Part shown: positions 1,761 through 39,165 of the stretch, piece after piece
Position numbering within the stretch: position 1 is the first letter of the stretch
Layout of the letters: each line of letters opens with the position of its first letter
NCBI GenBank assembly: GCA_964521195.1
Contig: CAZFRE010000001.1
Span: 334,317 to 398,316, forward strand
Direction: 5' to 3'
Length of the DNA stretch: 64,000 nucleotides
From: an uncultured Eubacteriales bacterium
Lineage (GTDB): Bacteria > Actinomycetota > Coriobacteriia > Anaerosomatales > JAAXUF01
Translations under genes and position numbers: made by a program
Notes under the pieces: generated by a model
What the model was told of the DNA's origin: nothing
The model's input: only the letters and a program-made list of their open reading frames with translations
Databases searched by the model: none

Positions 1761-1903
1761 GGTGTCGCCTTTCCTTGTCGGCCGCTCGATGCTCGAGCGG
1801 TCCCGTGACCCTGTTATCGGCAGGTATGTGACTTGCTGTGAGACTCGCTTTCGGGCCCTCATCCGTGCGAGACTATAGTATTGACTCACTCGAAGGGACA
1901 TGC

Positions 1904-2965
1904 ATGAAGGCGCCCAGTACCGCCAGCCGAATCCTGCTCGTTCTCGCCGCCACGCTGCTGATCGCTCTGTCTGCGACGCTGGCGTGGGCGGTCGTGGTCG
2001 ACTACCAGTCCCGGGGGCTCGTTCCCAGCGGCGTGACGGTCGTCGGCGAGGATCTCGGTGGCATGACCGAAACGCAGGCGCGAGAGGCGATCGAGGAGGC
2101 CGTCTCGACGCCGATGTTTCGGCCTGTGACCGTCACCGGTGACGGCAGGTCCTGGACGCTGGATCCCAAGGGCATCGTCACCGTCGACGTCGACTCGATG
2201 ATCGCCTCGGCCTACCACCCGCGCCGCAACGCGACGATGGTGCAGCGGCTGAACAACCAGATCGCCGGTGAGCCGATGACCGCGGAGATCGAGCCGGTCT
2301 ACTCGGTGGACGAGAGCGCAGTCGCCGCGTGGGTCGCAAGCGCTGCAGAGCAGGTCAACCGCAAGCCCAAGGACGCGAAGCGCGAGCTGAGGGGCTACAA
2401 GTTCAAAATCACCAAGTCCAAGCCGGGCGCGAAGGTGAACCAGGCCGCGACGGTCGAGCAGATCTCCAACGCTCTCACCGCCGATGCCGCGCTCTCGTCG
2501 GACGCTCGTACCGTGGCGATGACGATCAAGTCGCTCAAGCCCAAGGTGCACGAGAAGTCCTTCAAGACCGCGATCATCGTGTCGCTCTCGCAGTGCAAGA
2601 TCCGCCTGTACAAGGGCTCGAAGCTCGTCAAGACGTACATGTGCGCGCCGGGCCGTCCTGCATTCCCCACGCCCACCGGCGACTTCAAGATCGTGACCAA
2701 ACTCGCGAACGCGCCGTGGATCAACCCGGGGTCAGACTGGGCGAAGGACATGCCGCCGAGCATCCCGCCGGGGCCGTACAACCCGATGGGCGTGCGCAAG
2801 ATCGGCATCAACTACCCAGGCGTGTTCATGCATGGCATCCCGCCGAGCGAATTCGGAAGCATCGGCACGCACGCGAGCCACGGCTGCATGCGCATGATGC
2901 CGAGCGCCGTGCTCGACCTGTTCGGGCGCGTCAAGGTGGGCGACCCGGTCTACATCCGGCAGTAG
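1904..2965 (+). CDS. L,D-transpeptidase (YkuD domain) with N-terminal membrane anchor
   Basis: C-terminal YkuD catalytic signature ...GTHASHGCMRMMP. N-terminal TM segment ILLVLAATLLIALSATLAWAVV. Start set at the internal ATG (MKAPSTAS). Confidence 0.85.
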   Translation: MKAPSTASRILLVLAATLLIALSATLAWAVVVDYQSRGLVPSGVTVVGEDLGGMTETQAREAIEEAVSTPMFRPVTVTGDGRSWTLDPKGIVTVDVDSMIASAYHPRRNATMVQRLNNQIAGEPMTAEIEPVYSVDESAVAAWVASAAEQVNRKPKDAKRELRGYKFKITKSKPGAKVNQAATVEQISNALTADAALSSDARTVAMTIKSLKPKVHEKSFKTAIIVSLSQCKIRLYKGSKLVKTYMCAPGRPAFPTPTGDFKIVTKLANAPWINPGSDWAKDMPPSIPPGPYNPMGVRKIGINYPGVFMHGIPPSEFGSIGTHASHGCMRMMPSAVLDLFGRVKVGDPVYIRQ

Positions 2966-2969
2966 CCGC

Positions 2970-4010
2970 TCACTCACGTACCAGCGACACGTCGTCGACG
3001 TACGCGGAGCTACCCGCGCTCACCACGCCCGATGCATCGACACTGCTCGCGCCCGCGAGCAGGACGCTGACGCGTGCGAGGACGGCACCGTTGGGGGCGG
3101 CACCCGCGACGCCCAGCCGAGCGAACGAACTTGCGCCGACTCCGGCGGACGCGCCGGTGGTGCTCGTCTCGGCGAGTGATCGGCCGGACTCGTCGAGGTA
3201 GGAGAGGCGAAGTTCGACACCCTCGGGTGCGTAGCCGGTCATCGCCCAAGCTGCCGCGCGGTATGAGGTCCCGGCAACGACGCTCGTCTCCTGCGACAGC
3301 TCGGTCCGGCCGCCGGGGTCAGCGTCGGGGTTGAGCAGCTTGAGTGAGTTGCGAGCGGTGCGGTATGTCTTCTTGGCGTGCTTGGTCCGCGTCTCGTCCC
3401 ACTGCTCGTTCGCCGTCCACCACACCGGTTTCTCGGGAGCGCTGCTCCAGCTGCGTGCCCACGTGTTGAACGAGCCGTTGCGCAGCAGATTCGAGGGTGC
3501 CGGGCTGTTCTTGATGCGGTCGAACCGAGCCGGCACGTACCCGAAGTCGAGATCGTCGCGCAGCCGGTGGATGCGGCACACCGCGACCTTGCCGTTGCCG
3601 GACTCGTAGGCAACGTAGTAGGTGTGCTCGGGGTCGAGCCAGCCGTAGAACAGCCGGATGTGGTACCCGCGCTTGAGCATCGCGTCGCCCGGCTTGAGCT
3701 CAGAGGACTTGATGCGGTGGGCGACATTGCGGAACGAGCGAGTCGACCACGACGTGCCGGTCTTCCAGCACATCGACACGTAGCCCGAGCAGTCCGTCCG
3801 GTAGCCGGCGTGGTACTTCGACTGGCTATAGCCCACGGGCGAGTCGACCCAGCGCTGGGCGCGAGCGAGCACGTCGTTGCGCGTGATCGCGGATGCCGGC
3901 GCCGCGCATGAGAGCGCGATGGCGCACGCGAGTACGAGTGTGCGCCCGACCGGCGGGCGTCCACGCCGCGTCCGGGCTGTCTTCGTCGAAGCGATGGTGA
4001 CTGTGTCCAT
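2970..4010 (-). CDS. NlpC/P60-like cell-wall hydrolase fused to a C-terminal carbohydrate-binding-like beta-sandwich
   Basis: Signal peptide. Cys nucleophile context YRTDCSGYVSMCW followed by HIRLFYGW. The C-terminal half (LLRNGSFNTW...YVDDVSLV) resembles CBM4/9-type modules. GGAGG lies 10 nt upstream of the ATG at 4010. Confidence 0.65.
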   Translation of the reverse strand: MDTVTIASTKTARTRRGRPPVGRTLVLACAIALSCAAPASAITRNDVLARAQRWVDSPVGYSQSKYHAGYRTDCSGYVSMCWKTGTSWSTRSFRNVAHRIKSSELKPGDAMLKRGYHIRLFYGWLDPEHTYYVAYESGNGKVAVCRIHRLRDDLDFGYVPARFDRIKNSPAPSNLLRNGSFNTWARSWSSAPEKPVWWTANEQWDETRTKHAKKTYRTARNSLKLLNPDADPGGRTELSQETSVVAGTSYRAAAWAMTGYAPEGVELRLSYLDESGRSLAETSTTGASAGVGASSFARLGVAGAAPNGAVLARVSVLLAGASSVDASGVVSAGSSAYVDDVSLVRE

Positions 4011-4119
4011 GGGGCCGTTCACCTCCGGCTTCGGTATCGGCGCGAGGGCGGTGTTCCGTGAGCGTCGCGAGGCGATTGCGCCGAGCGCCGGTGACGCTCG
4101 TCACCGGCCATGCGCTACC

Positions 4120-4890: not shown

Positions 4891-7662
4891 ATGATGTCCG
4901 CTCGCATACGAGTGTCGGCCGCACTGTCCGCTGCGGGGCTCGTGTGCGCGCTCGTGTGGGGGGCGAGCCCGGCATTCGCTGCGACCGCCGAGGACGCAGC
5001 CTCCGAGTTCGTCATCGGCACGGTCGTCTCGGCACAGCCACGATTGGTCGCCGAGACCGGCGTGATCGTCACCGATGTCGAGGTCGTGCAGGCCGCACCG
5101 GGCGGGGGAGTCGAGGTCGCCGGGTTCGCCATGCGCGGCGGCGAGATCGGCGACATGGGCATGTGGTCCGAGCAGTACGTGGCCCTCTCACCGGGAGATC
5201 CGGTGCTCGCGCCGGTCGAGGAGATCGGCGGCGCGGTCACCGCTGTCGGCGCGCCCGTCTCGGGGGTGGCCGCTGTCAGCGCGGGCTACATCTGGGAAGG
5301 TCTGAGCTGGCCCGACAGTTCGCTCCCCGTGCACTACCGGTTCAATCCCTCAGGCATGCCGACGGGGTCTGAGTCCGCCGTCATCGCGAGCGCCGACGCA
5401 TGGGAGAACGATGCTGGCTCGTACATGGACTACACGTACGACGGCACCACGTCGACGTCAGCCGGTGCCGCGGACGGGGTGAACGTCGTCGGCACGGGCG
5501 CTCTCGGCGCCGGGGGCCCACTGGCGGTGTGCCAGTACTGGTACAACCCTTCGACGATGTCGATCGTGCAGTTCGACATACAGTTCAACGTCTCGAACTA
5601 CAGCTTCGCGACCAACGGAAGCGGGTCGGCGTACGACGTTCGCGCCGTAGGCACGCACGAGTTCGGGCACACGCTGTGCCTCTCGGACATGTACGAGGCC
5701 GAGAACGCCAACCAGGTGATGTATGGCTACGTGACCGCGGGCGACCTGTCCAGCCGTACCCTCAAGTGGGGCGACATCGCGGGAATCCGCGCCATCTACC
5801 CCAGTCCCGCCGGCTCGCTCTCGGGCACCGTCACCGATGCCGTGGGCACCGGGCTCTCGGGTGCGTCAGTCTCGGTACCAGGCAGCCCGGCGGTCCTGAC
5901 GGGCGCGAGCGGGACGTACGCGATCTCCGGCATCGAGCCCGGGGCCTACGACGTCACGTACTCCAAGCCCGGCTACATCAGCCGGACCCTGAGCGTCACC
6001 ATCGCCGATGACGGGAACACGGTGAGCAACGTGGCGCTGTCCGCTCCGCCGGCAACCACGGCAAGCGTGTCGCCGTCGACGGCGCTGAGCTCGTGGATCG
6101 CCACGTCGGCGACGGTGAGCCTGTCCGCGTCGGCGAGTACCGGGACGATCGCGTGGACGCACTACGCCGTGAACGGCGGTGCCGAGCAGGCCTACGCGAC
6201 GCCGTTCGTCATCTCAGGCGAGGGCACCACGACGATCGGGTACCGCTCGCAGGACTCGCACGGCAACCTCGAGACCTCGAAGACCGCCGCGGTCCGCATC
6301 GATCTGTCCGCGCCCGTGACGACGCTCGTGCGCCCCGGAGCCACCTATGCCGCAGGCGCGGGCGGCTGCTTGAGCCTGGTCGCAAGCGATGCGCTGTCAG
6401 GTGTCGCGACCACTTCGTGGCGACTCGGTGCGAGCGGCGGCTTCAAGTCGGGAACGGCGGTTCCGGTGCCGGCGGCAGTCGGCACCTACACGATCCAGTA
6501 CTTCTCCGTGGATGCGGTCGGCAATGCCGAGGCCGTGCAGTCGTCGCAGTTCGCGGTCATCAGCGACGCCCTGCCCCCGGTCACCACGAGCGACGCGAAG
6601 GCGCAGTATGACACGTCCGCCAGGGTGTCGCTCACGGCCACCGACCTCGTCTCGGGCGTGGCGAGCACCCATTGGCTGCTCGACGGTATCGCCGGCACCG
6701 GCACGACCATCGACGTCGCCGCCTACGGAAACCACTCGTTGAGTTTCTGGTCGATCGACGGCGTCGGCAACGCGGAGACGCCGAGTGCTGTCAGCTTCTT
6801 CGTGCGCGATGTGACCGCTCCGACGGTCAGCGCGTTCGTCGACGCTCTGAACACCGAGAACGCGACGATTGAATTGCGCGCTTCGGACGAGGCGCATGGG
6901 AGCGGCGTCGCATCGATCTCCTATCGGCTCGACGACGAGGCCACCCAGACCGTCGCGGGTGCCTACACCACCGTGACTCCGTCGCAGGGCGTGACGCACA
7001 CCGTCACGTACTGGGCGAACGACGTCGCGGGCAACGCCAGCTCGCCCGGTTCTGTCACGCGCAAGGTGATCGGGCCGACGCGTTTCCTGCTCGATACGCT
7101 GCCGTCCCCCGTGGCGCCGGGTGCATTCGTGACACTATCGGCTCGCGTCGAGACGTTCTCGGCGGTCGCGCCTGTGGCCGGTGAGAGCGTCATCCTGCAG
7201 GTCAGCAATGGCGGCGTCTGGTCGAAGGCCGTGCCCACGGGAGCCCTGGTAGCCGAGGACGGCTCCTTCACGTTCGAGTTCTCGCCACTGCAAAGCGCCA
7301 CCTACCGGTTCTCGACATCACCGGGCACCGCTCTGCGCTACGGCGTGAGCGACCCGTTCGTCATCGGGGTGCGCGCGCTGGTCACCCGTCCTTCGGCGCC
7401 GAAGTCACCCATGGCGAAGCGCACCTTCTCGGTCTCAGGCCGGGTGACTCCGAAGCTCGCAAGCACGGCTCGGCTGAAGTGGTACCGCGTGAAGAGCACC
7501 GGCAAGAAGTACTACGCCGGCAAGACCGTCTCGCTCTCGTCGACCGGCAAGTGGACGGCCAAGCGCAGCCTGCCGAGGGGGACCTGGGCGGCGCGGGTGG
7601 TCTACACAGACCCGTTCGGCGTTGTGACGACGAGTTCGTACCGGACGTTCAAGGTGAGGTAG
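4891..7662 (+). CDS. secreted metzincin (matrixin/snapalysin-like) protease with CarboxypepD_reg-like domain, about 4-5 Ig-like (OmpL47/CHB_HEX_C-type) repeats and a C-terminal beta-sandwich
   Basis: Signal peptide ...SPAFAATAED. Zinc site HEFGHTLCLSDMY (HExxHxxxxxD). SGTVTD..G..L.GA.V.....TG..G.Y.I.G..PG.Y resembles carboxypeptidase-regulatory/PEGA modules. Repeats carry the signature ...SGVA.T.W.L.G......G.H...Y.S.D..GN.E. Confidence 0.8.
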   Translation: MMSARIRVSAALSAAGLVCALVWGASPAFAATAEDAASEFVIGTVVSAQPRLVAETGVIVTDVEVVQAAPGGGVEVAGFAMRGGEIGDMGMWSEQYVALSPGDPVLAPVEEIGGAVTAVGAPVSGVAAVSAGYIWEGLSWPDSSLPVHYRFNPSGMPTGSESAVIASADAWENDAGSYMDYTYDGTTSTSAGAADGVNVVGTGALGAGGPLAVCQYWYNPSTMSIVQFDIQFNVSNYSFATNGSGSAYDVRAVGTHEFGHTLCLSDMYEAENANQVMYGYVTAGDLSSRTLKWGDIAGIRAIYPSPAGSLSGTVTDAVGTGLSGASVSVPGSPAVLTGASGTYAISGIEPGAYDVTYSKPGYISRTLSVTIADDGNTVSNVALSAPPATTASVSPSTALSSWIATSATVSLSASASTGTIAWTHYAVNGGAEQAYATPFVISGEGTTTIGYRSQDSHGNLETSKTAAVRIDLSAPVTTLVRPGATYAAGAGGCLSLVASDALSGVATTSWRLGASGGFKSGTAVPVPAAVGTYTIQYFSVDAVGNAEAVQSSQFAVISDALPPVTTSDAKAQYDTSARVSLTATDLVSGVASTHWLLDGIAGTGTTIDVAAYGNHSLSFWSIDGVGNAETPSAVSFFVRDVTAPTVSAFVDALNTENATIELRASDEAHGSGVASISYRLDDEATQTVAGAYTTVTPSQGVTHTVTYWANDVAGNASSPGSVTRKVIGPTRFLLDTLPSPVAPGAFVTLSARVETFSAVAPVAGESVILQVSNGGVWSKAVPTGALVAEDGSFTFEFSPLQSATYRFSTSPGTALRYGVSDPFVIGVRALVTRPSAPKSPMAKRTFSVSGRVTPKLASTARLKWYRVKSTGKKYYAGKTVSLSSTGKWTAKRSLPRGTWAARVVYTDPFGVVTTSSYRTFKVR

Positions 7663-10503: not shown

Positions 10504-12309
10504 ATGCCAGTGCGCACCATCCGCGTCGACTGCGCCGCCGAGCAGACCGTCTTCGAGGGCTGGGGGACGTCGCTTGCGTGGTGGGCGAACGCGGTGGGAC
10601 GTTGGCCCGCCGAGCAGCGCGCGCCGCTTCTGCGCCGACTCTTCACGCTTGATGCCGGCGGCCTCGGGCTCACGATCGCGCGCTTCAATGCGGGCGGCGG
10701 CGAGCGGCCGGGCACCCAGACGACGATGATGCCGCGTGCGGTCATGGACGGCTACCGGTCGCGGCCGGGCGCGCCGTTCGACGAGACCGCCGACCCTGGT
10801 CAGCGCGCCGTGCTGCGCGAGGCCGCAGCGCTCGCCTCGGCGTCGGGTGACGAGCTCGTGGTGGAGCTGTTCGGCAACTCGCCTCCATGGTGGATGACGC
10901 GCTCGGGCAGCGTGACCGGCGACTCGCTCATCGGCCGAATCCCCGCACCCAATCTCGCTCCCTCGTTCGAGCGCGACTACCTCGCCTACCTTGCCGAGGT
11001 CGCGTCGTTCGTCGAGCGCGACGCCGGCGTACGCGTGGAGTCGATCTCGCCGGTCAACGAACCGACGTCACAGGCGTGGGCGCTCGGCGGGCGGCAGGAG
11101 GGCTGCACGTATTCGCTGCGCGGTATCGACCGGCTGCTCTCGCGCTACGCCGAGGAGCCCGCGCTCGCTGGCGGCCACGTGGTCGCGGGTACCGAGGAGT
11201 GGGGGCTGCACGAGGCGGTGCGTACGTTCGACGCACTCGGCTCCGTCGCTCGCGGCGTCCTCGGGCGGCTCAACACGCACACGTACCGCGGCGCTTCGCG
11301 CTCGGCGGTTCGGGCTCGCGCGGTGCGTGCCGGTCTCTCTCTGTGGCTGTCGGAGTTCGGCGAGGGCGGCCCTTGCGGCTACGAACTCGCGCTCGCCATC
11401 GTGCGCGACCTGCGGGAGCTCGCACCGAGCGCGTGGGTGCTCTGGCAAGCCGTCTCGCCCGACGACTGGGGACTCTATCGCCTCACGCACGGCGGCTCGC
11501 GCGCCGAGGTCGCACCCAAGTTCGAGGTCTTCTCGCGGTTCACGCGCTCGATCCGCCCGGGCATGCGCCTGCTGGGCACCGACGACCCGCATTCGGTCGC
11601 CGCGCGCGGCGGCGGGCGGCTTGCCGCGGTCCTCCTCGGCAGCCTCACCGCCGAGGAGGACGTGCACCTCGACTTTGGCGCTCCTGCGGCCGGTGCAGGC
11701 GTACCCGCCGTGGTCACGGTCGCATCCGCGCTCTGCGGTGGGCTGCCGGAGCGTTTCGAGGTGCACGCCGGCGACGGGACCGTGCGGTTCTCGTTACCGC
11801 GGGGAGCCATCGCGTCGGTGGAGCTCGCCGCCGCCGACCCGTCCGCCGCCGAGCAGGGCTATCGCGGCTGCGGCACGTGGCGGCTCGTGCACGGGTCGGG
11901 GCAGCAGCTCGGTCTCGCGGTCGCGGGCGATGCCGAGTTGCGAGCAGGCGTGCGCGCGATCGGTGTCGCTCCGGACGATCGTGCCGCCGTGCAGCGCTGG
12001 CGTGCCGAACCATGTGGCGGTGGCGACGTGCGATGGGTGTGCGAGGCCTCCGGCTGCCAGCTCGACGTGGCGTACGCATCGCGTCGCCACGGGGCGCCGG
12101 TAGTGCAGTGGCGTGCCCGACTCGCCGAGAAGACCCCGCTGCATTGCCGCTTCGCCGTGCGCGAGGTCGGCGACGGCGCCTTCGAGCTGATCGCGCGCCA
12201 CAGCGGCCTCGCGCTCGCGCTGGACGGTGCCGGTAGAGCGGTGACGCAGCGGCCCGGTGACGCGGCCACGCGGTGGCGTCTCGTTCGCGCGACCGGGGCG
12301 CGATTGTAG
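10504..12309 (+). CDS. glycoside hydrolase family 30-like enzyme with C-terminal ricin-B lectin domain
   Basis: N-terminal Q.FEGWGTSLAWWAN pattern typical of GH30/O-glycosyl hydrolases. C-terminal region has QxW-like repeats (VQRW, VVQW, TRW). GGAGG lies upstream of the ATG. No signal peptide is visible. Confidence 0.65.
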   Translation: MPVRTIRVDCAAEQTVFEGWGTSLAWWANAVGRWPAEQRAPLLRRLFTLDAGGLGLTIARFNAGGGERPGTQTTMMPRAVMDGYRSRPGAPFDETADPGQRAVLREAAALASASGDELVVELFGNSPPWWMTRSGSVTGDSLIGRIPAPNLAPSFERDYLAYLAEVASFVERDAGVRVESISPVNEPTSQAWALGGRQEGCTYSLRGIDRLLSRYAEEPALAGGHVVAGTEEWGLHEAVRTFDALGSVARGVLGRLNTHTYRGASRSAVRARAVRAGLSLWLSEFGEGGPCGYELALAIVRDLRELAPSAWVLWQAVSPDDWGLYRLTHGGSRAEVAPKFEVFSRFTRSIRPGMRLLGTDDPHSVAARGGGRLAAVLLGSLTAEEDVHLDFGAPAAGAGVPAVVTVASALCGGLPERFEVHAGDGTVRFSLPRGAIASVELAAADPSAAEQGYRGCGTWRLVHGSGQQLGLAVAGDAELRAGVRAIGVAPDDRAAVQRWRAEPCGGGDVRWVCEASGCQLDVAYASRRHGAPVVQWRARLAEKTPLHCRFAVREVGDGAFELIARHSGLALALDGAGRAVTQRPGDAATRWRLVRATGARL

Positions 12310-13918: not shown

Positions 13919-15772
13919 GTGTCGGGGCCTGCCTCCCGGCGGATTGGACCAGCAGTGAGCCTCAGGACCAGCAGTCACGCCACAACCCGCGGCGCCGCGG
14001 CAGCCTTCGTGCTGCTCGCGGCCGTTGCGTATGGCGCATCTGCGGTCACGGCAGCCCGCGCCGACAGCCCCCACCTCAGCGCATCGACCGACACCTCCAG
14101 CTGTGCGGCTTGCCACTGGAGCCATGCGGCCACGCACCCCACACTCACGCGCAGTACCGACGCCTCCGACGCCGTCACGCCGACGTGCCTGTCGTGTCAC
14201 AGCGGTGTGGATGATGAGATCTCGAACGTCACGAGTGGCACGGTCGACTCGTTCTCGCTGCCATCCGGGCATTCGATAGATCCCGACTCCGGACTCGACG
14301 CGCATATCGCCGGCTGCGAGACGTGCCACGACATCCACGGGTCCTCGGAAGAGACGCGACGCACTCCTGCGCGGACGATCAACGGGGTCTCGGTCTCCTC
14401 GGCGGACAAGCAGACGTGCGTGGCCTGCCACGCGTCATCTGAAGACTGGTTCGGTGCAGGCTACCCCGCAACCGACAGCCCGACTCGCGACGCGACCGGC
14501 TACCCCGTGGCCGGCACATGGCCCGGTCCGAGCACGTACGAGTCCCAGACCAACGCACACCGTCTGATCCCCGAATCGACACGCACGGTCGGCGTGAGCG
14601 AGCCGATCATGCGCGAGGAGGGCTCCTGCCTCTACTGCCACGCCGCTCACGGCGCAGCCAACGCCTACGACGGCCTCGTGACCACGTACACGGTTCCGAG
14701 TACCGCCACGCTCGAGGCGGACCGCACGGATGGTGACTACGCGGCCGTGTGCTTCGAGTGCCACGGCGGCTCCACGCCGGCGGGCTTCGATGACCGGCCC
14801 GTCGATATCAAGCAGTTCGCGACGGTATCCGGCGCAGGCGGCCACTCGATCGTCACGAGCGGTGGGGCACTACCGGTCGGCGCGCAGCTGCCGTGCTTCG
14901 AGTGCCACAACCCGCACGGCTCGACGCGTGGCAATGCGGCCAACATCTCCGATGAACTCGGCGGCTCCCTGGCGACCACGAGCGCTGCCGGCGTCCGTGC
15001 GTTCTGCTTCACCTGCCACACCACGAGCGACACGGTGGCCGGGTGGAGCAGCACCGACGAGACGTACACCCCGGTGGTGTGGAGCGACGAGGTCGTGGGA
15101 TTGCCGCGTGAGGGTGCACTGCTGAACCTGCCGGACACGGCGGGGCACAGCCAGGAAGACACCGCGTCGTGCTACGAGTGCCACGGTGACGACTACAACG
15201 AGGATGGCAACAACGTTCACAACCCGGCCGACCCGCACGCCGGCCGGTTCGCCATCGCGGCGCCGCTCGGCGAGAGCATGCTGACGACCCCGACAGTCGA
15301 GGCGACTTCGAGTGTCGACGCATCCGCATCGCTGGATGCCAGCGCGAGCCTCGTGGCGACCGGCAGCATCGTGGCGACCGGCACCGTCGTCGTGCCCGAT
15401 GCCGGCGTGCCGAGCGAACCGTCATCCGGCGTAGCGGCGGCCGACCTCATCGCGCCACTGACCGCCTCCGACGCGGTCGCCACCTACAGCGTCACTGCGA
15501 CGATCACGTTGACTGCGGCCGATGACGCCGGCGGGAGCGGGGTCGCCGAGACGTTCTGGTCGCTCGACGGCGGTGAGCTCTGCACCGGCACGGTCGTCGC
15601 GACGTCGACGCCGGGCACCCACACGCTCACGTTCTGGTCGGTGGATGTGGCGGGCAACGCCGAGCCGGCCAACACCGTCGACTTCACGGTCGAAGACGCC
15701 CTGACGTACTCGGCGATGCCTGCGCTGATCGCCCGGCGCGGCTGGGTGATCGGCGAGCGCTCGGGCAGCTAG
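13919..15772 (+). CDS. exported multihaem c-type cytochrome (9 CxxCH) with C-terminal Ig-like surface domain
   Basis: Signal peptide ...AAVAYGASAVTAARA. CxxCH motifs: CAACH, CLSCH, CETCH, CVACH, CLYCH, CFECH, CFECH, CFTCH, CYECH; several appear as CxxCHxxHG. The C-terminus has ...DDAGGSGVAETFWSLDGG...GTHTLTFWSVDVAGNAE. The GTG start is uncertain. Confidence 0.75.
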   Translation: MSGPASRRIGPAVSLRTSSHATTRGAAAAFVLLAAVAYGASAVTAARADSPHLSASTDTSSCAACHWSHAATHPTLTRSTDASDAVTPTCLSCHSGVDDEISNVTSGTVDSFSLPSGHSIDPDSGLDAHIAGCETCHDIHGSSEETRRTPARTINGVSVSSADKQTCVACHASSEDWFGAGYPATDSPTRDATGYPVAGTWPGPSTYESQTNAHRLIPESTRTVGVSEPIMREEGSCLYCHAAHGAANAYDGLVTTYTVPSTATLEADRTDGDYAAVCFECHGGSTPAGFDDRPVDIKQFATVSGAGGHSIVTSGGALPVGAQLPCFECHNPHGSTRGNAANISDELGGSLATTSAAGVRAFCFTCHTTSDTVAGWSSTDETYTPVVWSDEVVGLPREGALLNLPDTAGHSQEDTASCYECHGDDYNEDGNNVHNPADPHAGRFAIAAPLGESMLTTPTVEATSSVDASASLDASASLVATGSIVATGTVVVPDAGVPSEPSSGVAAADLIAPLTASDAVATYSVTATITLTAADDAGGSGVAETFWSLDGGELCTGTVVATSTPGTHTLTFWSVDVAGNAEPANTVDFTVEDALTYSAMPALIARRGWVIGERSGS

Positions 15773-21385: not shown

Positions 21386-22366
21386 CTAGCGGACGCGCAC
21401 CGAGACGATCTGCGAAACGCTCGGGGCGAGTTCGGCGGTGCCGGCGAAGCGTGCCTGGAACTTGTACGTGCCCTTGGACGACGCGTTGTAGCGATACTTC
21501 CAGCTGGCGCTGTTCGACTTCTCGGAGTCCTTCGTCTCGACCTTCTTGACGAGGACCCACGTGCTGGAGCCGGGCTTCATGACGTAGATCGCGACCTTGA
21601 GGTCGTCCTCATTCGCACTCAGCTTGCCGGACAGCGAGACGCTCCTGCGCGACTTGTGATCGTCGTCGTCGCCGTCACGTTCGTACGAGGCGCGGAGAGT
21701 CACGGTGGTGGACGTCAAGCCGCTCGGGTCGACCGGCACCGGGGCGGTGATCGTGAAGCTCGCGGTCTTGTGGGTCTCGGCGTTACCGGCCACGTCGACC
21801 GACCAGAACTCGATGGTGTGGGAGCCGACGGTGGCGACGTTGATCGACGTGCCCGTCATCTGCGCACCGCCGTTGAGCTTGTAGTAGGTGTTGGCGACAC
21901 CGGAGCCCGCGTCGGTGGCGGAGAGCTTGATCGCCGCCGAGGAGACGTAGGTCGCCTTGGCATCCGACGTCGTCACCGGGGCGGTGGCGTCGACGGGCAC
22001 CGGGGCGGTGGCGTTCAGGATGGCCGTACCGAGCCCATCAGACGTTCCCGGCCCGGTGACGGCGAAGATCGTGTACACGTTGCCGGTGGTCACGGTGAAC
22101 TGGCCAGAGGCGCCGGCGACAGTGGTCACGCGGGTCGTACCATTGAACACGGAGACGTAGTCGGCGCCGGGGGCGCTGAAGCTGTACGTCGCGGAGGTGC
22201 CCGATGCCGAGAGAAGCGTGGTGGTGATGGTCGCGCCTGCACCGTCGTGACAGTTGCTGCATTGCGAGGTCTTGCTTGGGGTCGCCGAAGCGGTGGTGGC
22301 GAACACAGCCAGCATGCCAACCGCGATCAAGGCGACGGCCACACCGAGTCTTCCTTTGCGAATCAC
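21386..22366 (-). CDS. secreted protein: single CxxCH + Ig-like (OmpL47-type) domains + shared C-terminal beta-sandwich
   Basis: GTG at 22366 with GGAGG upstream. Signal peptide ...AVFATTASA. CSNCH lies directly after the signal peptide. ...SATDAGSGVANTYYKLNGG...GSHTIEFWSVDVAGNAE. The C-terminus has KGTYKFQARFAGT. Confidence 0.65.
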   Translation of the reverse strand: MIRKGRLGVAVALIAVGMLAVFATTASATPSKTSQCSNCHDGAGATITTTLLSASGTSATYSFSAPGADYVSVFNGTTRVTTVAGASGQFTVTTGNVYTIFAVTGPGTSDGLGTAILNATAPVPVDATAPVTTSDAKATYVSSAAIKLSATDAGSGVANTYYKLNGGAQMTGTSINVATVGSHTIEFWSVDVAGNAETHKTASFTITAPVPVDPSGLTSTTVTLRASYERDGDDDDHKSRRSVSLSGKLSANEDDLKVAIYVMKPGSSTWVLVKKVETKDSEKSNSASWKYRYNASSKGTYKFQARFAGTAELAPSVSQIVSVRVR

Positions 22367-22721
22367 GAAACACCTCCGAGAGTTGCGGGATGCGGCGGAT
22401 CCAGCGTCCGCCTTGCGAACCGTTTCGGCGGTTAGAAAGCGCATCTAGAGCCAATTCGTGCTAGCTAAGAAGACTCTAAGGGTGGCCTAATGTCCGAGAC
22501 GGCCCAGAGGGTCGAGGGCGACGCACCCGACGGTCAGTCGCTTCACCGCTCTGAGCAGGCGTGACGTGGCTGAGAGCGTGGTTGGCTCGCGCAGCCGACG
22601 CCGCGGAGCGGTCAGACCGCTCTCATCCACCGCTCTCATCTGCGGCTTCCTCTACTGTGCGCTTCGTCACAGTGTGGGCGCCGACGGGACCGCACGTCGC
22701 CAGATCGCGGCCGAGGTGACG

Positions 22722-28898: not shown

Positions 28899-28926
28899 TT
28901 GACTTCGCGCGTCAAACGCATACCAT
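28899..28926 (+). promoter_or_regulatory. candidate sigma-70-type promoter for the nrdD leader
   Basis: TTGACT (28899-28904), a 16-nt spacer, then TACCAT (28921-28926), just upstream of the riboswitch. Confidence 0.4.
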
Positions 28927-28949
28927 ATGCTGTACCACGGTTCGCCAGA

Positions 28950-29118
28950 CCACCATATCTGGTGCTAAGAGGGAAGCCGGTGCGCCAACGCGGCAACGCC
29001 GGCGCTGCCCCCGCAACTGTAGACGGAGAGCCGCTGTCGACCACCGCCACTGGCGCGCAAGTGCTGGGAAGGCCCGACAGCCGCACTGACCCGCAAGCCA
29101 GTAGACCTGCCGTGGCGC
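28950..29118 (+). promoter_or_regulatory. cobalamin (B12) riboswitch upstream of nrdD
   Basis: Conserved blocks read directly: AGAGGGAAGCCGGTG (28968), GCCCCCGCAACTGTA (29007), B12 box GCCACTGG (29046), GGGAAGGC (29066), AGCCAGTAGACCTGCC (29096). Confidence 0.85.
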
Positions 29119-29226
29119 ACGAGCAATGTATCGCCAGGGCGGGGTGTCCCGGTGGCTTGCAGGGGGAGCGTCGACCGTCGCCTGCGCCAGCCGCAGACCA
29201 CCCGGACCTTGCAGAGGAGGACGGGT

Positions 29227-32232: not shown

Positions 32233-32339
32233 CTCTCGGCACCTGGCGGCATTGTCGGCGAGTGCGCGAGGTCCCGACCTGCGGTGCTGGCGTCGTGAGG
32301 TTCGGCTCGGCTAGACTCGCAGCGTTCACAACAGAACAG

Positions 32340-32470
32340 GCGTCATTCGGTGCCCGGGAGCGCGCAAGCGGCCTCGGGAGAATAGGGAACCCGGTGAGAG
32401 TCCGGGACGGTACCCGCCACTGTGAGCGCCGCGATGACGCGGCGTGGAGTCAGGAGACCTGCCGAGTGAT
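32340..32470 (+). promoter_or_regulatory. cobalamin (B12) riboswitch upstream of btuF-like transporter operon
   Basis: AATAGGGAACCCGGTGAGAGTCCGGGAC (32381), GGTACCCGCCACTGTGA (32409, B12 box), AGTCAGGAGACCTGCC (32448). Confidence 0.9.
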
Positions 32471-32568
32471 GCGCGACGCGGCCTTCGAGGATAGAGGCCG
32501 GCTCGCGGTGCCCGGCGATGCGACTCCAACGGCCGGCTCCCCGAACCGCTCCGCTGCACACTCGAAAG

Positions 32569-32607
32569 CCCGCTCGCCTCGGTACGTCACAGGCGGCGGG
32601 TTTTCTC
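32569..32607 (+). terminator. candidate riboswitch expression-platform terminator
   Basis: cccgc(t)cgcc ...13-nt loop... ggcggcggg followed by TTTTCTC. Located between the aptamer and the btuF start. Confidence 0.55.
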
Positions 32608-32652
32608 ATGTCAGGGGCGCGTCATGACCGCCCCGTAGCAAGAGGAGGACGC

Positions 32653-33642
32653 ATGACCTGCACCACGCGCACGACCCGCACCGACCGGCCCACGCGCCGG
32701 GCCCGCCCGCGCATCGCGCTAGCGCTCGCGGCCGCGGCGCTCGCCGCCGCCGCGCTCGCAGGCTGCTCAGGCGCTGCGCCCGCGCCGCCCGCGCCCGCCG
32801 AGGCGCCCGCGCCCGCCGCAGCATTCCCGGTCACGATCACCGACGACGCGAGCCAGTCCGTCACAATCGAGACGGAGCCGCAGCGCATCGTCTCGCTCGC
32901 GCCGGCGAACACCGAGATCGCATTCGCGCTCGGCCTGGGCGACAAGGTCGTCGGCGTCACGACGTTCGACGACTACCCGGCCGAGGTGGCCGGAATCGCC
33001 AAGGTCGGCGACTTCACGACCCCGAACTTCGAGGCGATCGCCGCGGCCAAGCCCGACCTCGTGCTTGCGACGACCGGCGTGCAGGCCGACGCTATCGCCA
33101 AGCTCAAGGAACTCGGCGCCACCGTGATCGCGATCGACCCGCAGAGCCTCGAGGGTGTGTATACCGACATCGAGCGCGTCGGTCAGGCGACCGGCACTTC
33201 CGAGAAGGCGGCCGAGGTCGTCGGCGGCATGAAGGCCGAGGTCGCAGCGGTTCAGAAGGCGGTTGAGGGCACCGAGGCCGTCACCGCGTTCGTCGAGATC
33301 GCCCAAAACCCGCTCTATACCGTCGGCTCGGGCACGCTCATCGACGAGCTGCTGACGCTCGCAGGTGGCACCAACGTGGTGACCGAGCCGAGCTATGTCG
33401 CCTACTCCTCCGAGCACGTCATCAAGGCCGACCCGCAGGTCTACCTCGCGACGAAGGGCTCGATGAGCGACCCGGCCGCACTTGCCAAGCGCGCCGGCTT
33501 CGCCAAGCTCTCGGCGGTCAAGAACGACCGCGTCTACATTCTCGACGACAACTGGGTGTCGCGGCCGGGTCCGCGCGTGGTACTGGGCCTCAAGCAGATC
33601 GCGGCTGCGCTGCACCCCGGCGCGGTCGACGCCCCGCAGTAG
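32653..33642 (+). CDS. cobalamin/siderophore-type ABC substrate-binding lipoprotein (BtuF-like)
   Basis: ATG with GAGGAGGA upstream. Lipobox LAGC. PRIVSLAPANTEI.FALGLGDKVVGVT pattern. B12 riboswitch upstream. Confidence 0.8.
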   Translation: MTCTTRTTRTDRPTRRARPRIALALAAAALAAAALAGCSGAAPAPPAPAEAPAPAAAFPVTITDDASQSVTIETEPQRIVSLAPANTEIAFALGLGDKVVGVTTFDDYPAEVAGIAKVGDFTTPNFEAIAAAKPDLVLATTGVQADAIAKLKELGATVIAIDPQSLEGVYTDIERVGQATGTSEKAAEVVGGMKAEVAAVQKAVEGTEAVTAFVEIAQNPLYTVGSGTLIDELLTLAGGTNVVTEPSYVAYSSEHVIKADPQVYLATKGSMSDPAALAKRAGFAKLSAVKNDRVYILDDNWVSRPGPRVVLGLKQIAAALHPGAVDAPQ

Positions 33643-33645
33643 CCG

Positions 33646-34662
33646 ATGAGCGCCCGCCGGCAGCCGCGCCCTGCGCTCGCACTCGCCGCACTCGCCGTCA
33701 CGTTGTTGGCGGCGATGGTGGCAGGCGTGGCGCTCGGCGCGGTGCCGGTCGCGCCAGCCGACGTCATCGGTGCGATCGGCCGGGCGCTTCGCGGTGCGAC
33801 GAGCGGGCTCGCCGACACCCTCATCATCGACGTGCGCCTGCCCCGTGTGGTGCTCGCAGCGCTCGTGGGGGCGGCGCTCGGCGGCGCGGGCGCTCTGTAC
33901 CAGGCACTCTTCCGTAACCCGCTCGCCGACCCCTACATCCTCGGCATCTCGAGCGGCGCAGGTCTCGGCGCGATGGCGGCGATCGTGGCGACGGCCGGAG
34001 CCACGGCGCTGCGCTTTGCGGCCGTACCGCTCTCCGCGTTCGTGGGCGCAACTCTCACCATGCTGCTCGTCGTGCGGCTTGCGACGCATCGTGGCCGGCT
34101 CGATGCGACATCGCTCCTGCTCGCGGGTGTCGCGCTGTCGTACACGCTCGCGGCGGTCACTTCGTTTCTGATGGTCGTCGCGCGCGAGCAGATGGCGGCC
34201 ATCGTCTACTGGATGATGGGCGGCTTCTCGGCGGCGTCATGGCCGTACGTCGCGATGGTCGCGCCGATGTTTGTGGCCGGCATCGTGTTGCCACTGCTCT
34301 CGACGCGAGAGCTCAACCTCATGCTGCTCGGTGACGAGCGCGCGGGGCATCTCGGCCTGTCCGTCGAGCGCTTCAAGCTGCTCACGCTCGCCTCGGCATC
34401 GCTGCTCACGGCGGCGGCGGTCTCGGTGGCCGGTCTTATCGGGTTCGTCGGGCTCATGACGCCGCACATGGTGCGGCTCGTACTCGGCCCCGACCATCGC
34501 ACCCTGCTGCCCGCATCGTTGCTCGGGGGCGCGATCGTGCTCGTGCTCGCCGACCTCGTCGCACGTACGATCATCGCGCCGATCGAGATTCCGGTGGGTA
34601 TCGTGACGGCGGTGCTCGGCGGGCCGTTCTTCATCTGGCTGCTCGTCAGGGGGCGACGATGA
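33646..34662 (+). CDS. FecCD-family ABC permease (BtuC-like)
   Basis: RLPRV..A.LVGAALG.AGA.YQ...NPLADPYILGISSGA and a C-terminal ...GGPFFIWLL. Confidence 0.9.
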   Translation: MSARRQPRPALALAALAVTLLAAMVAGVALGAVPVAPADVIGAIGRALRGATSGLADTLIIDVRLPRVVLAALVGAALGGAGALYQALFRNPLADPYILGISSGAGLGAMAAIVATAGATALRFAAVPLSAFVGATLTMLLVVRLATHRGRLDATSLLLAGVALSYTLAAVTSFLMVVAREQMAAIVYWMMGGFSAASWPYVAMVAPMFVAGIVLPLLSTRELNLMLLGDERAGHLGLSVERFKLLTLASASLLTAAAVSVAGLIGFVGLMTPHMVRLVLGPDHRTLLPASLLGGAIVLVLADLVARTIIAPIEIPVGIVTAVLGGPFFIWLLVRGRR

Positions 34663-36069: not shown

Positions 36070-39000
36070 ATGCTGAGAATGCGTTGGGCACTGGTCGCGC
36101 TTGCGGCCGCCGCGCTGGTCACCATCGCGGGGGTGCTCGGCGTGCCCTTCCCAACGGCGCTGTCGCAGCCGTCCGTCGCCCGGCCGTTGGCCCAACCTGC
36201 AGACGTGTCGATCGCGCAGGAGAGCGCGTGTGTGTCGAACGCGCTGTCCATGCCCGGCGTATCGGCGACCTCGACGGCTGCCATCAGTGCGCTCGGCTCG
36301 CAGTTGCCCGCAGTCGCACGACGATACGGCATGACCCCTGAAGTACTCGAGCAGACGCTGCTCTCGGATTCCACACTCAACGTGGATCGGCGAGGCGCGC
36401 TCTTCTACGTCGAGCCTGCGCCCGAGGTGGATGCCCCGCCCTCGATCTCCGAGATGGACTCGGCGGTGCAGCGAGACGCCGCCGCCGCGCCCTTCCCGCT
36501 GTCGCAGACGTTCATGCTTCACAGCCGACCTGGTGCCGAGCGCACGATCCTGCTCGACTTCAAGGGCATGCGCATGTCCGGCAATGCCTGGACCGCGAGC
36601 TACAACGGCGGGGCCGACATCGTGTGTCCACCGTTCTCCCTCGATGGGAGCCCCTCCTTCAGCGAGGCCGAGCAGGCCATCATCCAAGAGGTCTGGCAGC
36701 GGGTGGCCGAGGACTACGCCCCGTTCGACATCGACGTGACCACCGAGTTCACCAGTGAGGAAGTCATCACGCGGAGCTCATCCGCCGACCGAATCTACGG
36801 CACGCGAGCCCTCATCAGCCCGATCAGCGACAAGATTCCGGATGCCGCGGGCATCGCCTATGTCGGAGCCTTCAACGACATCGGCGACTACTACAAGCCG
36901 GCGCTGGTGTTCCCAGAATCCTGGGGCAACACGGCGAAGGATATCGCGCAGACGACGTCGCATGAGTGCGGCCACAACCTCGCGCTTCTCCACGATGGCA
37001 CCTCCGCGATCGAGTACTACCCCGGCGGGAACGGCTGGGCGCCAATCATGGGCCAAGGTCACTACGAAAGCCTCACCCAGTGGAGCAAGGGCGAGTATTC
37101 GGGAGCGAACAACTTCCAAGACGACCTCGCGCTCATCGCTGCGATGTCCGGTTTCCGTGCCGACGATGCCGCCGGAAGCCGCGAGAACGCCGCTGAGCTG
37201 CAGGTAGGTTCGTCCATCTCAGCGGCCGGCGTCATCACCGATGCGGGGGATGCCGACTACTACCGGTTCGTGGCAGGCGCGGGCCCGGCGGCGATCAGCA
37301 TCGTGCCTGCACCGAGCGGCCCGAACCTCGATATCGCGGCCGAGCTGCTGGATGCGAATGGCGCCGTAGTCGCATCGAGCGACTCGGCCTCGACACTGTC
37401 CGCCAGGATCAGCGTGCCCATCTCCCAGGGGGTCTACTACATCCGCGTCCGAGGCACCGGAAAAGGCGACCCTCTCACCACCGGGGGGTACTCGAACTAC
37501 GCCAGTGTCGGTCAGTACACCCTCTCAGGCAGCGTCCCCGCGATTCCGCCGCCCACGACCACCCTCACAGCGGTTCCCTCGGCGGCACTCAGTGGCTGGG
37601 TGTCCGGTGACGTGACGATCACCCTCACGGCGGTCAGCTCCATGGATCCAGTCGCCCGCACGAGCTACACGGTGGACGGGTCGGCGGAGCAGGACTACGC
37701 ATCTCCATTCCGCGTCACAGGCGATGGCGCCGTGCCGGTCACATACCACTCGTTCAGCAACCTCGGAATCGCCGAGACCGTGCGCACAGCGACCGTCTAT
37801 CTCGACAACTCCTCGCCGGTCACGGGTCCCACCAACATGCGCGCGATGTATCGAGTCTCGTCGGGGGCGACCATCGCGCTCGCAGCCAACGATCCACAGT
37901 CCGGCGTGGCATCGACGCGCTGGAGGCTCGGCTCGGCAAGCACATTCACCTCCGGTGCGGCTGTGCCGGTGCCGAGTCAGGCGGGCACCTACACCGTGCA
38001 GTACTACTCGGTCGACAAGGTCGGTAACGTTGAGCCCACGAAGTCCCTGAGCTTTGCGGTCGTGAACGATTCCACGCCGCCGAGGACGACCAGTGACGCG
38101 GCGGCCACCTATGACACGTCGGCACGCGTGACACTCGTCGCCACAGACACGGGAATCGGCGTCGAGTCGACTCACTGGCTCCTCGACGGGGCCGCAGGAA
38201 CCGGCACGACTGTCGACGTCCTTGACTATGGATCCCACGAGCTGCGGTTCTGGTCGGTCGACGCCGCCGGCAACGCCGAGACACCGACGACAGTGACGCT
38301 GTTCGTTCGGGATGTGAACTCGCCGACGGTGTGCGCGAGCGCGGACTACGCTTGGCTGAACGGGATGTCTGTGGAGTTCCAAGCCGCTGACGAGTCCCAC
38401 GGCAGCGGTCTTGACGTGATCGCGTACCGGCTCGACGGAGCTGAGACGCAGACCATCGCTGCGTCCAACTACGTTCTCACGCCCCGGCGTCCGGGCCGCC
38501 ACGAATGCGTCTACTGGGCCGTCGACAAGGCGGGGAACGCGAGTGCGCTCGCGACGCTCGTGTTCGACGTCATCGCGCCGACCCGCTTCGTGATGGACGC
38601 GATTCCGGCGCCGGTGAAGCCCGGCGTGGAGACGACCATCTCGGGTCGCGTCGACACCGAATCGGTCACCGCCCCGCTTCTCGGCGAGCCCGTGGTGCTC
38701 CAAGTGCTCCGGGACTCCGCGTGGACGAAGGCGCTTCCCTCGCCCGCGCTCGCGCAGGCGGACGGGGCGTTCGCCTTCAGGGTCGCTCCATACGAGAGCG
38801 GCGTGTATCGGGTGATCGTCGGCACTGGGAGCGCGCTGCGAGCCGGGGAGAGCGAGACCTTCGTGATCGGAGCGAAGGCGTCGGTCACGCGGCCGTCCAA
38901 GCCGAATTCTCCGCGCCACCGTCGCGCGTTCACACTCACCGGTTGGGTGATGCCGTCGCTCTCACGGAGCGTGCAGGTCAAGTACTACCGCGTGAAGAGC

Positions 39001-39165
39001 GGGAAACGGACGCTGTACTCCACGAAGACGGCATCGCTGTCGTCGGCGGGGAAATGGACCTACCGGCGCTCGCTTCCCCGCGGATCGTGGGCCGTGCGGG
39101 TGGTCTACACCGATCCGCTGAAGGTCGTCAGCACCAGCAGCTACCGGTCCTTCACGGTGAAGTAG
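36070..39165 (+). CDS. secreted reprolysin/adamalysin-like zinc metalloprotease with PPC domain, Ig-like repeats and shared C-terminal beta-sandwich
   Basis: Signal peptide. HECGHNLALLHDG (HExxHxxxxxHD). Pre-peptidase C-terminal-like block (DADYYRF...YYIRVRG...YTLSG). The stalk is collinear with that of 4891..7662. Confidence 0.8.
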   Translation: MLRMRWALVALAAAALVTIAGVLGVPFPTALSQPSVARPLAQPADVSIAQESACVSNALSMPGVSATSTAAISALGSQLPAVARRYGMTPEVLEQTLLSDSTLNVDRRGALFYVEPAPEVDAPPSISEMDSAVQRDAAAAPFPLSQTFMLHSRPGAERTILLDFKGMRMSGNAWTASYNGGADIVCPPFSLDGSPSFSEAEQAIIQEVWQRVAEDYAPFDIDVTTEFTSEEVITRSSSADRIYGTRALISPISDKIPDAAGIAYVGAFNDIGDYYKPALVFPESWGNTAKDIAQTTSHECGHNLALLHDGTSAIEYYPGGNGWAPIMGQGHYESLTQWSKGEYSGANNFQDDLALIAAMSGFRADDAAGSRENAAELQVGSSISAAGVITDAGDADYYRFVAGAGPAAISIVPAPSGPNLDIAAELLDANGAVVASSDSASTLSARISVPISQGVYYIRVRGTGKGDPLTTGGYSNYASVGQYTLSGSVPAIPPPTTTLTAVPSAALSGWVSGDVTITLTAVSSMDPVARTSYTVDGSAEQDYASPFRVTGDGAVPVTYHSFSNLGIAETVRTATVYLDNSSPVTGPTNMRAMYRVSSGATIALAANDPQSGVASTRWRLGSASTFTSGAAVPVPSQAGTYTVQYYSVDKVGNVEPTKSLSFAVVNDSTPPRTTSDAAATYDTSARVTLVATDTGIGVESTHWLLDGAAGTGTTVDVLDYGSHELRFWSVDAAGNAETPTTVTLFVRDVNSPTVCASADYAWLNGMSVEFQAADESHGSGLDVIAYRLDGAETQTIAASNYVLTPRRPGRHECVYWAVDKAGNASALATLVFDVIAPTRFVMDAIPAPVKPGVETTISGRVDTESVTAPLLGEPVVLQVLRDSAWTKALPSPALAQADGAFAFRVAPYESGVYRVIVGTGSALRAGESETFVIGAKASVTRPSKPNSPRHRRAFTLTGWVMPSLSRSVQVKYYRVKSGKRTLYSTKTASLSSAGKWTYRRSLPRGSWAVRVVYTDPLKVVSTSSYRSFTVK

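Follow-up and report, generated by a model that had tools for sequence, protein, structure and literature searches.

Two zinc metalloprotease genes and their domain organization

The stretch of DNA analysed here (referred to as the window) comprises 64,000 nucleotides (nt) of an uncultured Eubacteriales bacterium (GenBank assembly GCA_964521195.1, contig CAZFRE010000001.1, positions 334,317 to 398,316 of the forward strand) and contains two zinc metalloprotease genes, referred to as A and B, whose products combine unrelated catalytic heads with one and the same type of C-terminal tail. Both open reading frames (ORFs) were found at the coordinates given in a preliminary description of this DNA. 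A protein 100% identical to that of A was present in NCBI data (P0001; 922 amino acids (aa), beginning at the second Met), and the exact B protein was found in NCBI-derived data as P0306. A GGAG sequence was located upstream of the ATG of A. Both ORFs were long and codon-biased, with a GC content at the third codon position of 0.87 (A) and 0.83 (B) in a window with 67.7% GC. The N-terminus of A contained a hydrophobic 12-mer (Kyte-Doolittle value of 2.36), after which no transmembrane-like segment was found. A and B were built on a common plan, consisting of a signal peptide, a catalytic head, a small β-sandwich adaptor, and a 538-aa C-terminal cassette, and both are predicted to be exported. 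The named relatives of the two proteins were from metagenome-assembled genomes of Coriobacteriia, Thermoleophilia, and other Actinomycetota. The features of the two genes are as follows (R1-R4, repeats of the tail; C1 and C2, its two terminal domains).

4891..7662, forward strand: gene A, ORF of 923 aa; secreted matrixin-like zinc metalloprotease with a six-domain tail
4891..4980, forward strand: predicted Sec signal peptide of A, aa 1-30 (...SPAFA/AT), read from the sequence, with an inferred cleavage site
5281..5805, forward strand: matrixin-like catalytic head of A, aa ~131-305 (Pfam PF00413 and family profile)
5815..6039, forward strand: CarboxypepD_reg β-sandwich adaptor of A, aa 309-383 (PF13620, 49.2 bits; cut-off 32.3)
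6046..7074, forward strand: four OmpL47-type repeats of A, R1 (6046-6309), R2 (6310-6573), R3 (6574-6816), and R4 (6817-7074) (NF047446 and repeat alignment)
7075..7380, forward strand: immunoglobulin (Ig)-like domain C1 of A, aa 729-830, net charge -1 (AlphaFold and Foldseek)
7381..7659, forward strand: terminal polycationic Ig-like domain C2 of A, aa 831-923, net charge +20, isoelectric point (pI) 11.7, ending in SSYRTFKVR (charge and model)
36070..39165, forward strand: gene B, ORF of 1031 aa; secreted reprolysin-like zinc metalloprotease with a tail paralogous to that of A
36490..37224, forward strand: catalytic head of B, aa ~141-385 (sub-threshold reprolysin Pfam matches, homologues, and motif)
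37249..37455, forward strand: pre-peptidase C-terminal (PPC) domain of B, aa 394-462 (PF04151, 31.9 bits; cut-off 25.9)
37549..38577, forward strand: repeats R1-R4 of B, aa 494-836, collinear with those of A (NF047446 and gapless alignment)
38578..39162, forward strand: C1 (aa 837-938, net charge -1) and C2 (aa 939-1031, net charge +19, pI 11.7, ending in SSYRSFTVK) of B (charge, Big_13, and C-terminal hidden Markov model (HMM))

The C-terminal tail shared by A and B

When aa 386-923 of A were compared with aa 494-1031 of B by BLASTP, an ungapped alignment of 538 columns was obtained, with 52% identity and 68% positives (544 bits; E=0 under composition-based statistics), in agreement with the collinear stalk that had been proposed for the two proteins. 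The Smith-Waterman score between the tails was 1442, against 61 ± 10.5 for 200 shuffles (z=132), and positions occupied by Trp, Tyr, His, Asn, and Asp were conserved between them. The peptides quoted in the preliminary description, as well as the two C-terminal endings, were present in the respective tails. The homologous region started at nt 6046 (A) and 37549 (B), exactly where the CarboxypepD_reg and PPC domains, respectively, have ended, and this start corresponded to a Pro-Pro-x-Thr-Thr linker. Of the starts proposed previously (~6043 and 37534), that of B was off by 5 codons.

The OmpL47-type β-barrel domain profile (NF047446; cut-off of 40 bits) matched four stretches in each protein, with scores of 172.1 (A) and 158.9 bits (B). 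In the C-terminal part, Big_13 (PF19077) was detected at aa 972-1030 of B (34.7 bits; cut-off of 27), and B scored 257 bits against the C-terminal HMM. An AlphaFold model of aa 723-923 of A, using an alignment of 16 sequences, consisted of two all-β sandwiches with high confidence values (predicted local distance difference test (pLDDT), 93.3; predicted template modelling score, 0.83), and Foldseek returned only Ig-type matches with this C1-C2 model. From the NF047446 repeats and the modelled C1-C2 sandwiches, therefore, the tail consists of six β-sandwich domains in the order R1-R2-R3-R4-C1-C2. The earlier label of "Ig-repeat" was roughly correct: C1 and C2 were modelled as Ig-like, whereas R1-R4 belong to the OmpL47-type family, whose matches to Ig and FN3 structures in the PDB were weak. 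Within A, the identity of R3 was 29% to R1, 42% to R2, and 29% to R4, and the longest exact internal repeat in A or B was only 5 aa.

The charge of the tail was concentrated in its last domain. C2 had a net charge of +20 (A) or +19 (B) and a pI of 11.7, in contrast to pI values of 4.1-5.4 for all other domains except R2 of B (net +2; pI 9.3); R1-R4 of A were all acidic (pI 4.3-5.4).

Catalytic heads of A and B

In contrast to their tails, the heads of A and B are assigned to different metzincin-type families, sharing at most the general zincin core, because the profile-profile comparison of the two head families by hhalign aligned only 38 columns around HExxH (probability of 27.6%). The Smith-Waterman score between the heads (73) was also lower than that of the best shuffle (78). 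Full-length homology between the heads was therefore rejected on the basis of this alignment and score, and, since their Pfam assignments also differed, the earlier claim of two different heads was upheld.

Head A showed a marginal match with Peptidase_M10 (PF00413; 24.8 bits, cut-off of 24.0), which was confined to aa 230-303. Its zinc motif, HEFGHTLCLSD, was located at aa 256-266 (nt 5656-5688), followed by a Met-turn, VMYG, at aa 276-279. In an alignment of 12 family members, H256, E257, H260, D266, and M277 were invariant, consistent with the previous assignment of Asp to the position of the third zinc ligand. The head A family profile matched the catalytic domains of MMP-8 (the best, E=1.5e-5), MMP-7 (matrilysin), MMP-3 (stromelysin), and karilysin; the MMP match spanned the zinc helix, Met-turn, and last helix, with Met277 of A being aligned with the Met-turn of MMP-8. 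The likeness to matrixins (M10A) thus lies in this C-terminal part of the head. On the other hand, A deviated from the matrixin motif HExxHxxGxxH by having Cys for Gly and Asp for the third His. Snapalysin (M7) also carries Asp where matrixins have the third His, and the HExxHxxxxxD spacing was common to both; however, the similarity with solved snapalysins (4hx3 and 1c7k) was faint (E=0.27-0.30), and no M7 family was detected in the Pfam scan of A. Among the two parts of the earlier "snapalysin/matrixin-like" designation, therefore, the former was not supported as a sequence relationship, whereas the latter was. A also differed from both families in the Cys at the conserved Gly of HExxHxxGxx(H/D) and in an additional conserved N-terminal β-rich region of ~100 aa. 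This region (aa 31-130; 4981-5280), which lies between the signal peptide and catalytic domain, had no Pfam match but was well conserved across the relatives of head A, with several Gly and Trp residues being invariant, and is a candidate propeptide. The AlphaFold model of aa 31-305 of A, using the alignment of 12 sequences, had a pLDDT of only 41.

The zinc motif of B, HECGHNLALLHD, was located at aa 298-309 (nt 36961-36996), in which Ala replaces Gly of HExxHxxGxxHD. A sequence ...APIMG was found 20 residues after this motif, and is read as a Met-turn by position only. Head B itself was below the Pfam cut-offs for Reprolysin_3 (PF13582; 17.4 bits, cut-off of 22.4) and Reprolysin_5 (PF13688; 16.2 bits, cut-off of 27), whereas P0036, a homologue with a head 51% identical to that of B, exceeded the former (25.4 versus 22.4 bits). 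A search with full-length B yielded 1724 proteins at E≤0.001; the listed matches mainly covered the head and PPC, and many of them carried PF13582 or PF13688. The reprolysin-type assignment made previously fits the motif and the homologue, the Pfam matches of B itself being sub-threshold. The adaptors were recovered as described before, namely, CarboxypepD_reg in A and PPC in B, each above the cut-off.

Relatives of the heads and distribution of the cassette

Relatives of head A were approximately 50-55% identical over aa 1-305 and varied in their middle parts, which consisted of CarboxypepD_reg arrays, cadherin-like/Big_9 domains, or a single OmpL47 repeat; at most one repeat recognized by the A/B repeat profile, and never four, was present in the A relatives found. 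Most homologues of head B had PKD tails. In the closest relatives of B (P0036-P0041, P0043, and P0044), the head and PPC were followed by two to six OmpL47 repeats and then by either a single basic Ig domain or a set of three CWB2 domains. The homology search with A missed its paralogue B because P0306 had been filed in a cluster whose representative was a 52-aa fragment, and was thereby absent from the search results. Exact internal duplications were observed in the stalks of two homologues: 240 aa in the M6-headed P0166 (aa 514-753 and 763-1002) and 189 aa in the reprolysin-headed P0037 (aa 609-797 and 784-972). Either the stalks changed in length very recently or the metagenome bins contain assembly artefacts.

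A third head family was revealed when the last 201 aa of the tail were used in an exhaustive profile search. P0157 (1012 aa) had an M6 domain (TIGR03296; 126.5 bits, cut-off of 110.8) and the complete six-domain cassette, with a tail 47% identical to that of A and 2 gaps in 528 columns, and P0158 had an M6 head on R3-R4-C1-C2. M6-type heads were also found on the related tails of P0162 and P0163 (PF05547), P0163 and P0166 (TIGR03296), and P0165 (motif read in the sequence).

In a tree of the region from R3 to C2, A, B, and P0159 formed one group (92%) and P0157 and P0158 another (88%), with the other M6 tails lying outside; the sister grouping of A and B had a bootstrap value of only 55%. The tail of A was 53-54% identical to that of P0159, which is encoded on another contig, and was thus as close to it as to that of B. 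Because of this tree and the occurrence of the cassette under the A, B, and M6 heads, it is regarded as a mobile unit joined to at least three head families, and its core looks ancestrally M6-associated. The claim of the preliminary description that heads have been exchanged as modules on a shared tail was corroborated by the unrelatedness of the heads outside the zinc motif, by P0157, and by the quite different middles and tails carried by homologues of both heads.

The individual repeats had different affinities. The best outside matches of R1-R4 of A were P0041 and P0036 (42%), which belong to the B family and not to the A family. In a neighbour-joining tree of repeats, R1 and R2 corresponded to the two subtypes that alternate in the stalks of B's relatives, while R3 was grouped with repeats of the A family and of two other proteins encoded in the window, a multihaem cytochrome and the 21386-22444 protein (see below). 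R4 was peculiar to A and B in this tree, from which P0157 and P0158, also aligning through R4, were absent. The cassette is, on these groupings, a mosaic with R1-R2 of the B-relative type and R3 of the cytochrome/A-relative type. In the reading that we favour, it reached A and B by recombination at the Pro-Pro-x-Thr-Thr linker, which opens each repeat.

The polycationic C-terminal module

The C1-C2 module with a polycationic end is a family delimited in this analysis and not a curated one. A 201-aa profile of C1-C2 matched 211 cluster representatives at E≤0.001. In 109 of the best 149, the protein ended precisely where the match did, and in 129 the two ends were no more than 10 aa apart. The last 95 aa of 79 representatives had a median net charge of +15 (range of +7 to +26), in contrast to -3.9 per 95 aa for the remainder of the protein, and the final residue was Arg or Lys in 89 of the 100 representatives whose match reached both the module end and C-terminus. 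An N-terminus resembling a signal peptide was present in 42 of 56 complete-looking representatives, none of which (0/56) had a later transmembrane segment. The carriers were diverse, including S8 subtilases, M6 proteases, an NlpC/P60 hydrolase, and CarboxypepD_reg, FG-GAP, BNR, and cadherin-like proteins. A and B both showed the characteristics of the family: a profile match ending at the C-terminus and strongly basic last ~95 aa. The module was not found in 43 genome loci fetched through OmpL47 repeats, and only four ORFs among 78 metagenome loci carried it, none of them with HExxH or a peptidase Pfam match.

Nearly all relatives of head A terminated with a basic Ig domain, regardless of what lay in the middle; its net charge was +9 to +20. 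In the closest relatives of B (P0036-40 and P0043), three CWB2 domains directly followed the OmpL47 repeats: in a Pfam scan of P0036 and P0038, they started 4-5 aa beyond the last repeat, and PF04122 (CWB2) was precomputed for P0037, P0039, P0040, and P0043. Other relatives of both heads ended in a basic Ig domain instead of CWB2. CWB2 anchors surface proteins of Clostridioides difficile to the anionic wall polymer PSII (PMC4973711).

Interpretation and alternative explanations

The overall reading that we favour, with a probability of about 0.72, is that A and B arose by an old graft of the cassette onto two zinc metalloproteases, with C2 as an electrostatic envelope anchor. The anchor step taken by itself, i.e., the non-covalent electrostatic attachment of C2 to an anionic envelope polymer, is given somewhat less than an even chance. 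In this model, C2 (net +19/+20) would bind the anionic polymer, the five mostly acidic domains preceding it (only R2 of B is not acidic) would form a rod without attraction to the wall, ~15-25 nm long if Ig domains of usual size are assumed, and the protease would in this way be kept on the outside of the wall. The term "display scaffold", used in the preliminary description, is plausible in view of the polycationic C2 and its positional equivalence to CWB2 of B's relatives. Several points weigh against this reading. R1-R4 had no relative by sequence among solved structures, and the profile built from all ten repeats of the window found no close PDB relative, its match with the Ig domains of CEA being weak (E=5e-4). 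The direction of transfer is based on neighbour-joining trees of few sequences. No LPXTG, transmembrane, or CWB2 anchor was found in A or B by Pfam and NCBIfam scans or in the sequence, and the target of a basic domain could just as well be DNA, a mineral surface, or some anionic substrate.

The similarity of the tails, on which the graft depends, might be ascribed to composition, that is, to Ala/Thr/Ser/Val-rich β-strand sequence in a high-GC genome, and the tail was indeed rich in Ala, Thr, Ser, Val, and Gly. However, because E was 0 with composition-based statistics and z was 132, the similarity was neither compositional nor low-complexity; the BLASTP and shuffle tests refuted such an artefact, and the 538 gapless columns and conserved Trp, Tyr, His, Asn, and Asp also leave this explanation a negligible probability. 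A very unlikely alternative is that no head was swapped: A and B would each have inherited an OmpL47-type tail, later homogenized by gene conversion (concerted evolution). OmpL47 repeats and a basic terminal Ig domain were found together in relatives of head A (P0005-7 and P0009) as well as head B (P0041 and P0050), and recombination substrates were thus available on both sides. Against this, the A relatives found had at most one repeat of the A/B profile and not four, and the whole cassette occurred elsewhere under an M6 head, and thus predates or is independent of the A/B pair. In addition, no gene-conversion tract was seen along the tails, identity was even along their length, and the longest identical nucleotide run was 15 nt. 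The replacement of a tail by conversion would, moreover, be the same recombination viewed from the other side, differing from the graft in wording only. Comparisons at the nucleotide level also bear on the age of the exchange. Synonymous divergence between the tails was high (proportion of synonymous differences, 0.58; synonymous rate (dS), ~1.1), with a nonsynonymous rate of 0.46 and a ratio of ~0.42; identity at the third codon position was 47%, against 38% expected from composition, and blastn aligned only 1243 nt of the tails, with 64% identity. Recent duplication or gene conversion was rejected on the basis of dS and the 15-nt run. The preliminary description had called the exchange recent, which was incorrect because of the dS of ~1.1, 64% DNA identity (52% in protein), and short identical runs, together with the 55% value for A and B as sisters; the head swap is dated by these values as old.

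Regarding function, the main competitor of the envelope anchor is a role of the tail in substrate binding or targeting by freely secreted proteases, in which the β-sandwiches and basic end act on protein fibres, polysaccharide, extracellular DNA, or mineral surfaces, like PKD, PPC, and FN3 in collagenases and chitinases, and the cell's own envelope is not bound. This is the less probable of the two. In its favour, neither a covalent nor a known non-covalent anchor is present in A or B, the PKD tails of most homologues of head B are typical of soluble secreted enzymes, the repeat profile weakly matched FN3-like modules of chitinases and chitodextrinase (E of 0.004-0.2), and the C-terminal module occurs on very diverse extracellular proteins. 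This last observation, however, may also be read in the opposite direction, since carriers as different as S8, M6, NlpC/P60, FG-GAP, and BNR proteins argue against one shared substrate. Furthermore, a CWB2 wall anchor occupies the same position in the closest relatives of B, and the confinement of the charge to the last domain and the almost always terminal position of the module fit an attachment point better than a substrate clamp.

A bolder extension of the anchor reading, which we consider doubtful, is that C1-C2 is an undescribed and widespread C-terminal envelope-attachment module of uncultured monoderm bacteria, interchangeable in function with CWB2 and able to display any secreted enzyme on an acidic Ig-type spacer. 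Three metalloprotease families and propeller-type proteins were among its carriers, in addition to the S8 subtilases and NlpC/P60 hydrolase. A keyword search of the 2018 catalogue of monoderm surface-display modules (PMC5817068) returned no mention of a polycationic terminal Ig anchor, and a limited literature search found no description of such a domain as an anchor. In a still bolder form, by analogy with the β-sandwich C-terminal domains of type IX secretion (T9SS), C1-C2 might be a sorting signal read by dedicated machinery. The sole hit of the T9SS C-terminal sorting domain (TIGR04183) was at aa 419-464 of B, inside PPC (16.4 bits; cut-off of 23); a T9SS-type C-terminal domain was rejected because this profile did not match at the extreme C-terminus.

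Comparison with known modular proteins

A head combined with interchangeable β-sandwich domains is commonplace in secreted bacterial proteases, and shuffling is the norm in these families. A and B resembled modular secreted metzincins (with PPC, PKD, CarboxypepD_reg, and Big domains) in the signal peptide, HExxH head, and string of small β-sandwiches, and accessory domains were freely exchanged between families in these metzincins, as in the searches seeded with A and B. They differed in the long ordered six-domain cassette, which remained intact under three unrelated head families, and in its polycationic end. The exchange is ordinary as a phenomenon. What is new is that one conserved cassette occurs under three head families and, more importantly, that its terminal module is polycationic. 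It is a clean, textbook case of domain shuffling, with an intact cassette on three catalytic families and a junction exactly at a domain linker, and the cassette is a natural example of a putative portable display scaffold. For annotation, the heads and not the large shared tail should drive functional naming.

In their overall plan, A and B are comparable to CWB2 wall proteins of Firmicutes (the Cwp family of C. difficile), in which a functional N-terminal part is followed by a C-terminal non-covalent anchor to an anionic polymer (PMC4973711), whereas A and B have two Ig-like domains at the CWB2 position, the last with a net charge of +19/+20. Modules known for non-covalent surface attachment are LysM, SLH, CWB1, CWB2, GW, and WxL; if C2 is a wall anchor, a new type would be added to these. 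The surface proteome of lineages that are poorly known and for the most part uncultured would then become predictable, and the domain could be used as a small tag in fusions for surface display.

Periscope proteins are a class characterized by highly identical tandem repeats and length variation, and Big_13 (PF19077) is among the stalk folds listed for them (PMC9704523). A and B shared with these and other rod-like stalks an N-terminal functional domain, a run of Ig-like domains, and, in the anchor reading, attachment through the C-terminus, with Big_13 matching C2 of B, and the homologues P0166 and P0037 had exact stalk duplications. On the other hand, the repeats of A were only 29-42% identical (R3 versus the others), exact repeats did not exceed 5 aa, and neither a sortase motif nor hydrophobic C-terminal tail was present. 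Due to the divergence of the repeats and this short longest repeat, membership of A and B in the Periscope class was rejected.

The OmpL47 protein of Leptospira has been reported to be surface-exposed (PMC2698987), and a tandem OmpL47-type domain of ~68 aa (NF047446) is common to this protein (NF047441) and to A and B. It is, however, from a different type of organism and has no protease head. The scores of A and B against NF047441 were 77.8 and 68.1 bits, respectively, versus a cut-off of 250; they were, therefore, rejected as OmpL47 orthologues, with only the domain being in common.

Other OmpL47-type domains in the window and genomic context

Two further OmpL47-type domains were detected in the window:

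15452..15700, forward strand: single R3-type OmpL47 domain at the C-terminal end of a nine-haem cytochrome (gene 13919-15772), aa 512-594 (NF047446, 58.6 bits; repeat tree)
21740..21982, reverse strand: single R3-type OmpL47 domain, aa 155-235 of the 352-aa protein encoded at 21386-22444 (NF047446, 71.9 bits; repeat tree)

The occurrence of related repeats on these two proteins had been noted previously and was verified by the scores; the gene given as 21386-22366 does carry a repeat, whereas its end at 22366 was incorrect, the first possible start codon listed for the ORF being at 22444. The cytochrome (forward strand; 617 aa) is a secreted protein with nine CxxCH motifs and Pfam matches to Paired_CXXCH_1 and MtrC/MtrF-like domains. 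A multihaem cytochrome on a surface-type module in an apparently actinobacterial genome hints at extracellular electron transfer. The 352-aa protein (reverse strand) has one CxxCH (aa 62) and a poly-Asp linker, and its terminal Ig-like domain has the ending ...SVRVR and a net charge of +6. The protein resembles a miniature of the plan of head, spacer, and basic end, with a putative haem head.

Around A and B, nothing in the surrounding genes suggested a dedicated partner for either protease, and promoter and terminator scans found nothing, which is uninformative in DNA with 68% GC. A BtuFCD-like ABC transporter (32518-35933) has its stop codon 137 nt upstream of B. Since no terminator-like site was found between them by a scan that is weak in GC-rich DNA, B might be co-transcribed with the transporter. 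Two cobalamin riboswitches (RF00174) were found on the forward strand at 28921-29128 (118.7 bits) and 32331-32480 (85.5 bits), the second of which precedes this transporter. Cell-wall genes adjoin gene A, namely those for a YkuD L,D-transpeptidase with PG_binding_4 (1838-2965, forward strand) and a secreted protein of 350 aa that lacks Pfam matches (2970-4022, reverse strand); a YgaP-like membrane protein and META-domain lipoprotein are also encoded around it. Another modular extracellular enzyme, of 601 aa with GH30-like glycosidase and ricin-B lectin domains, is encoded at 10504-12309 on the forward strand.

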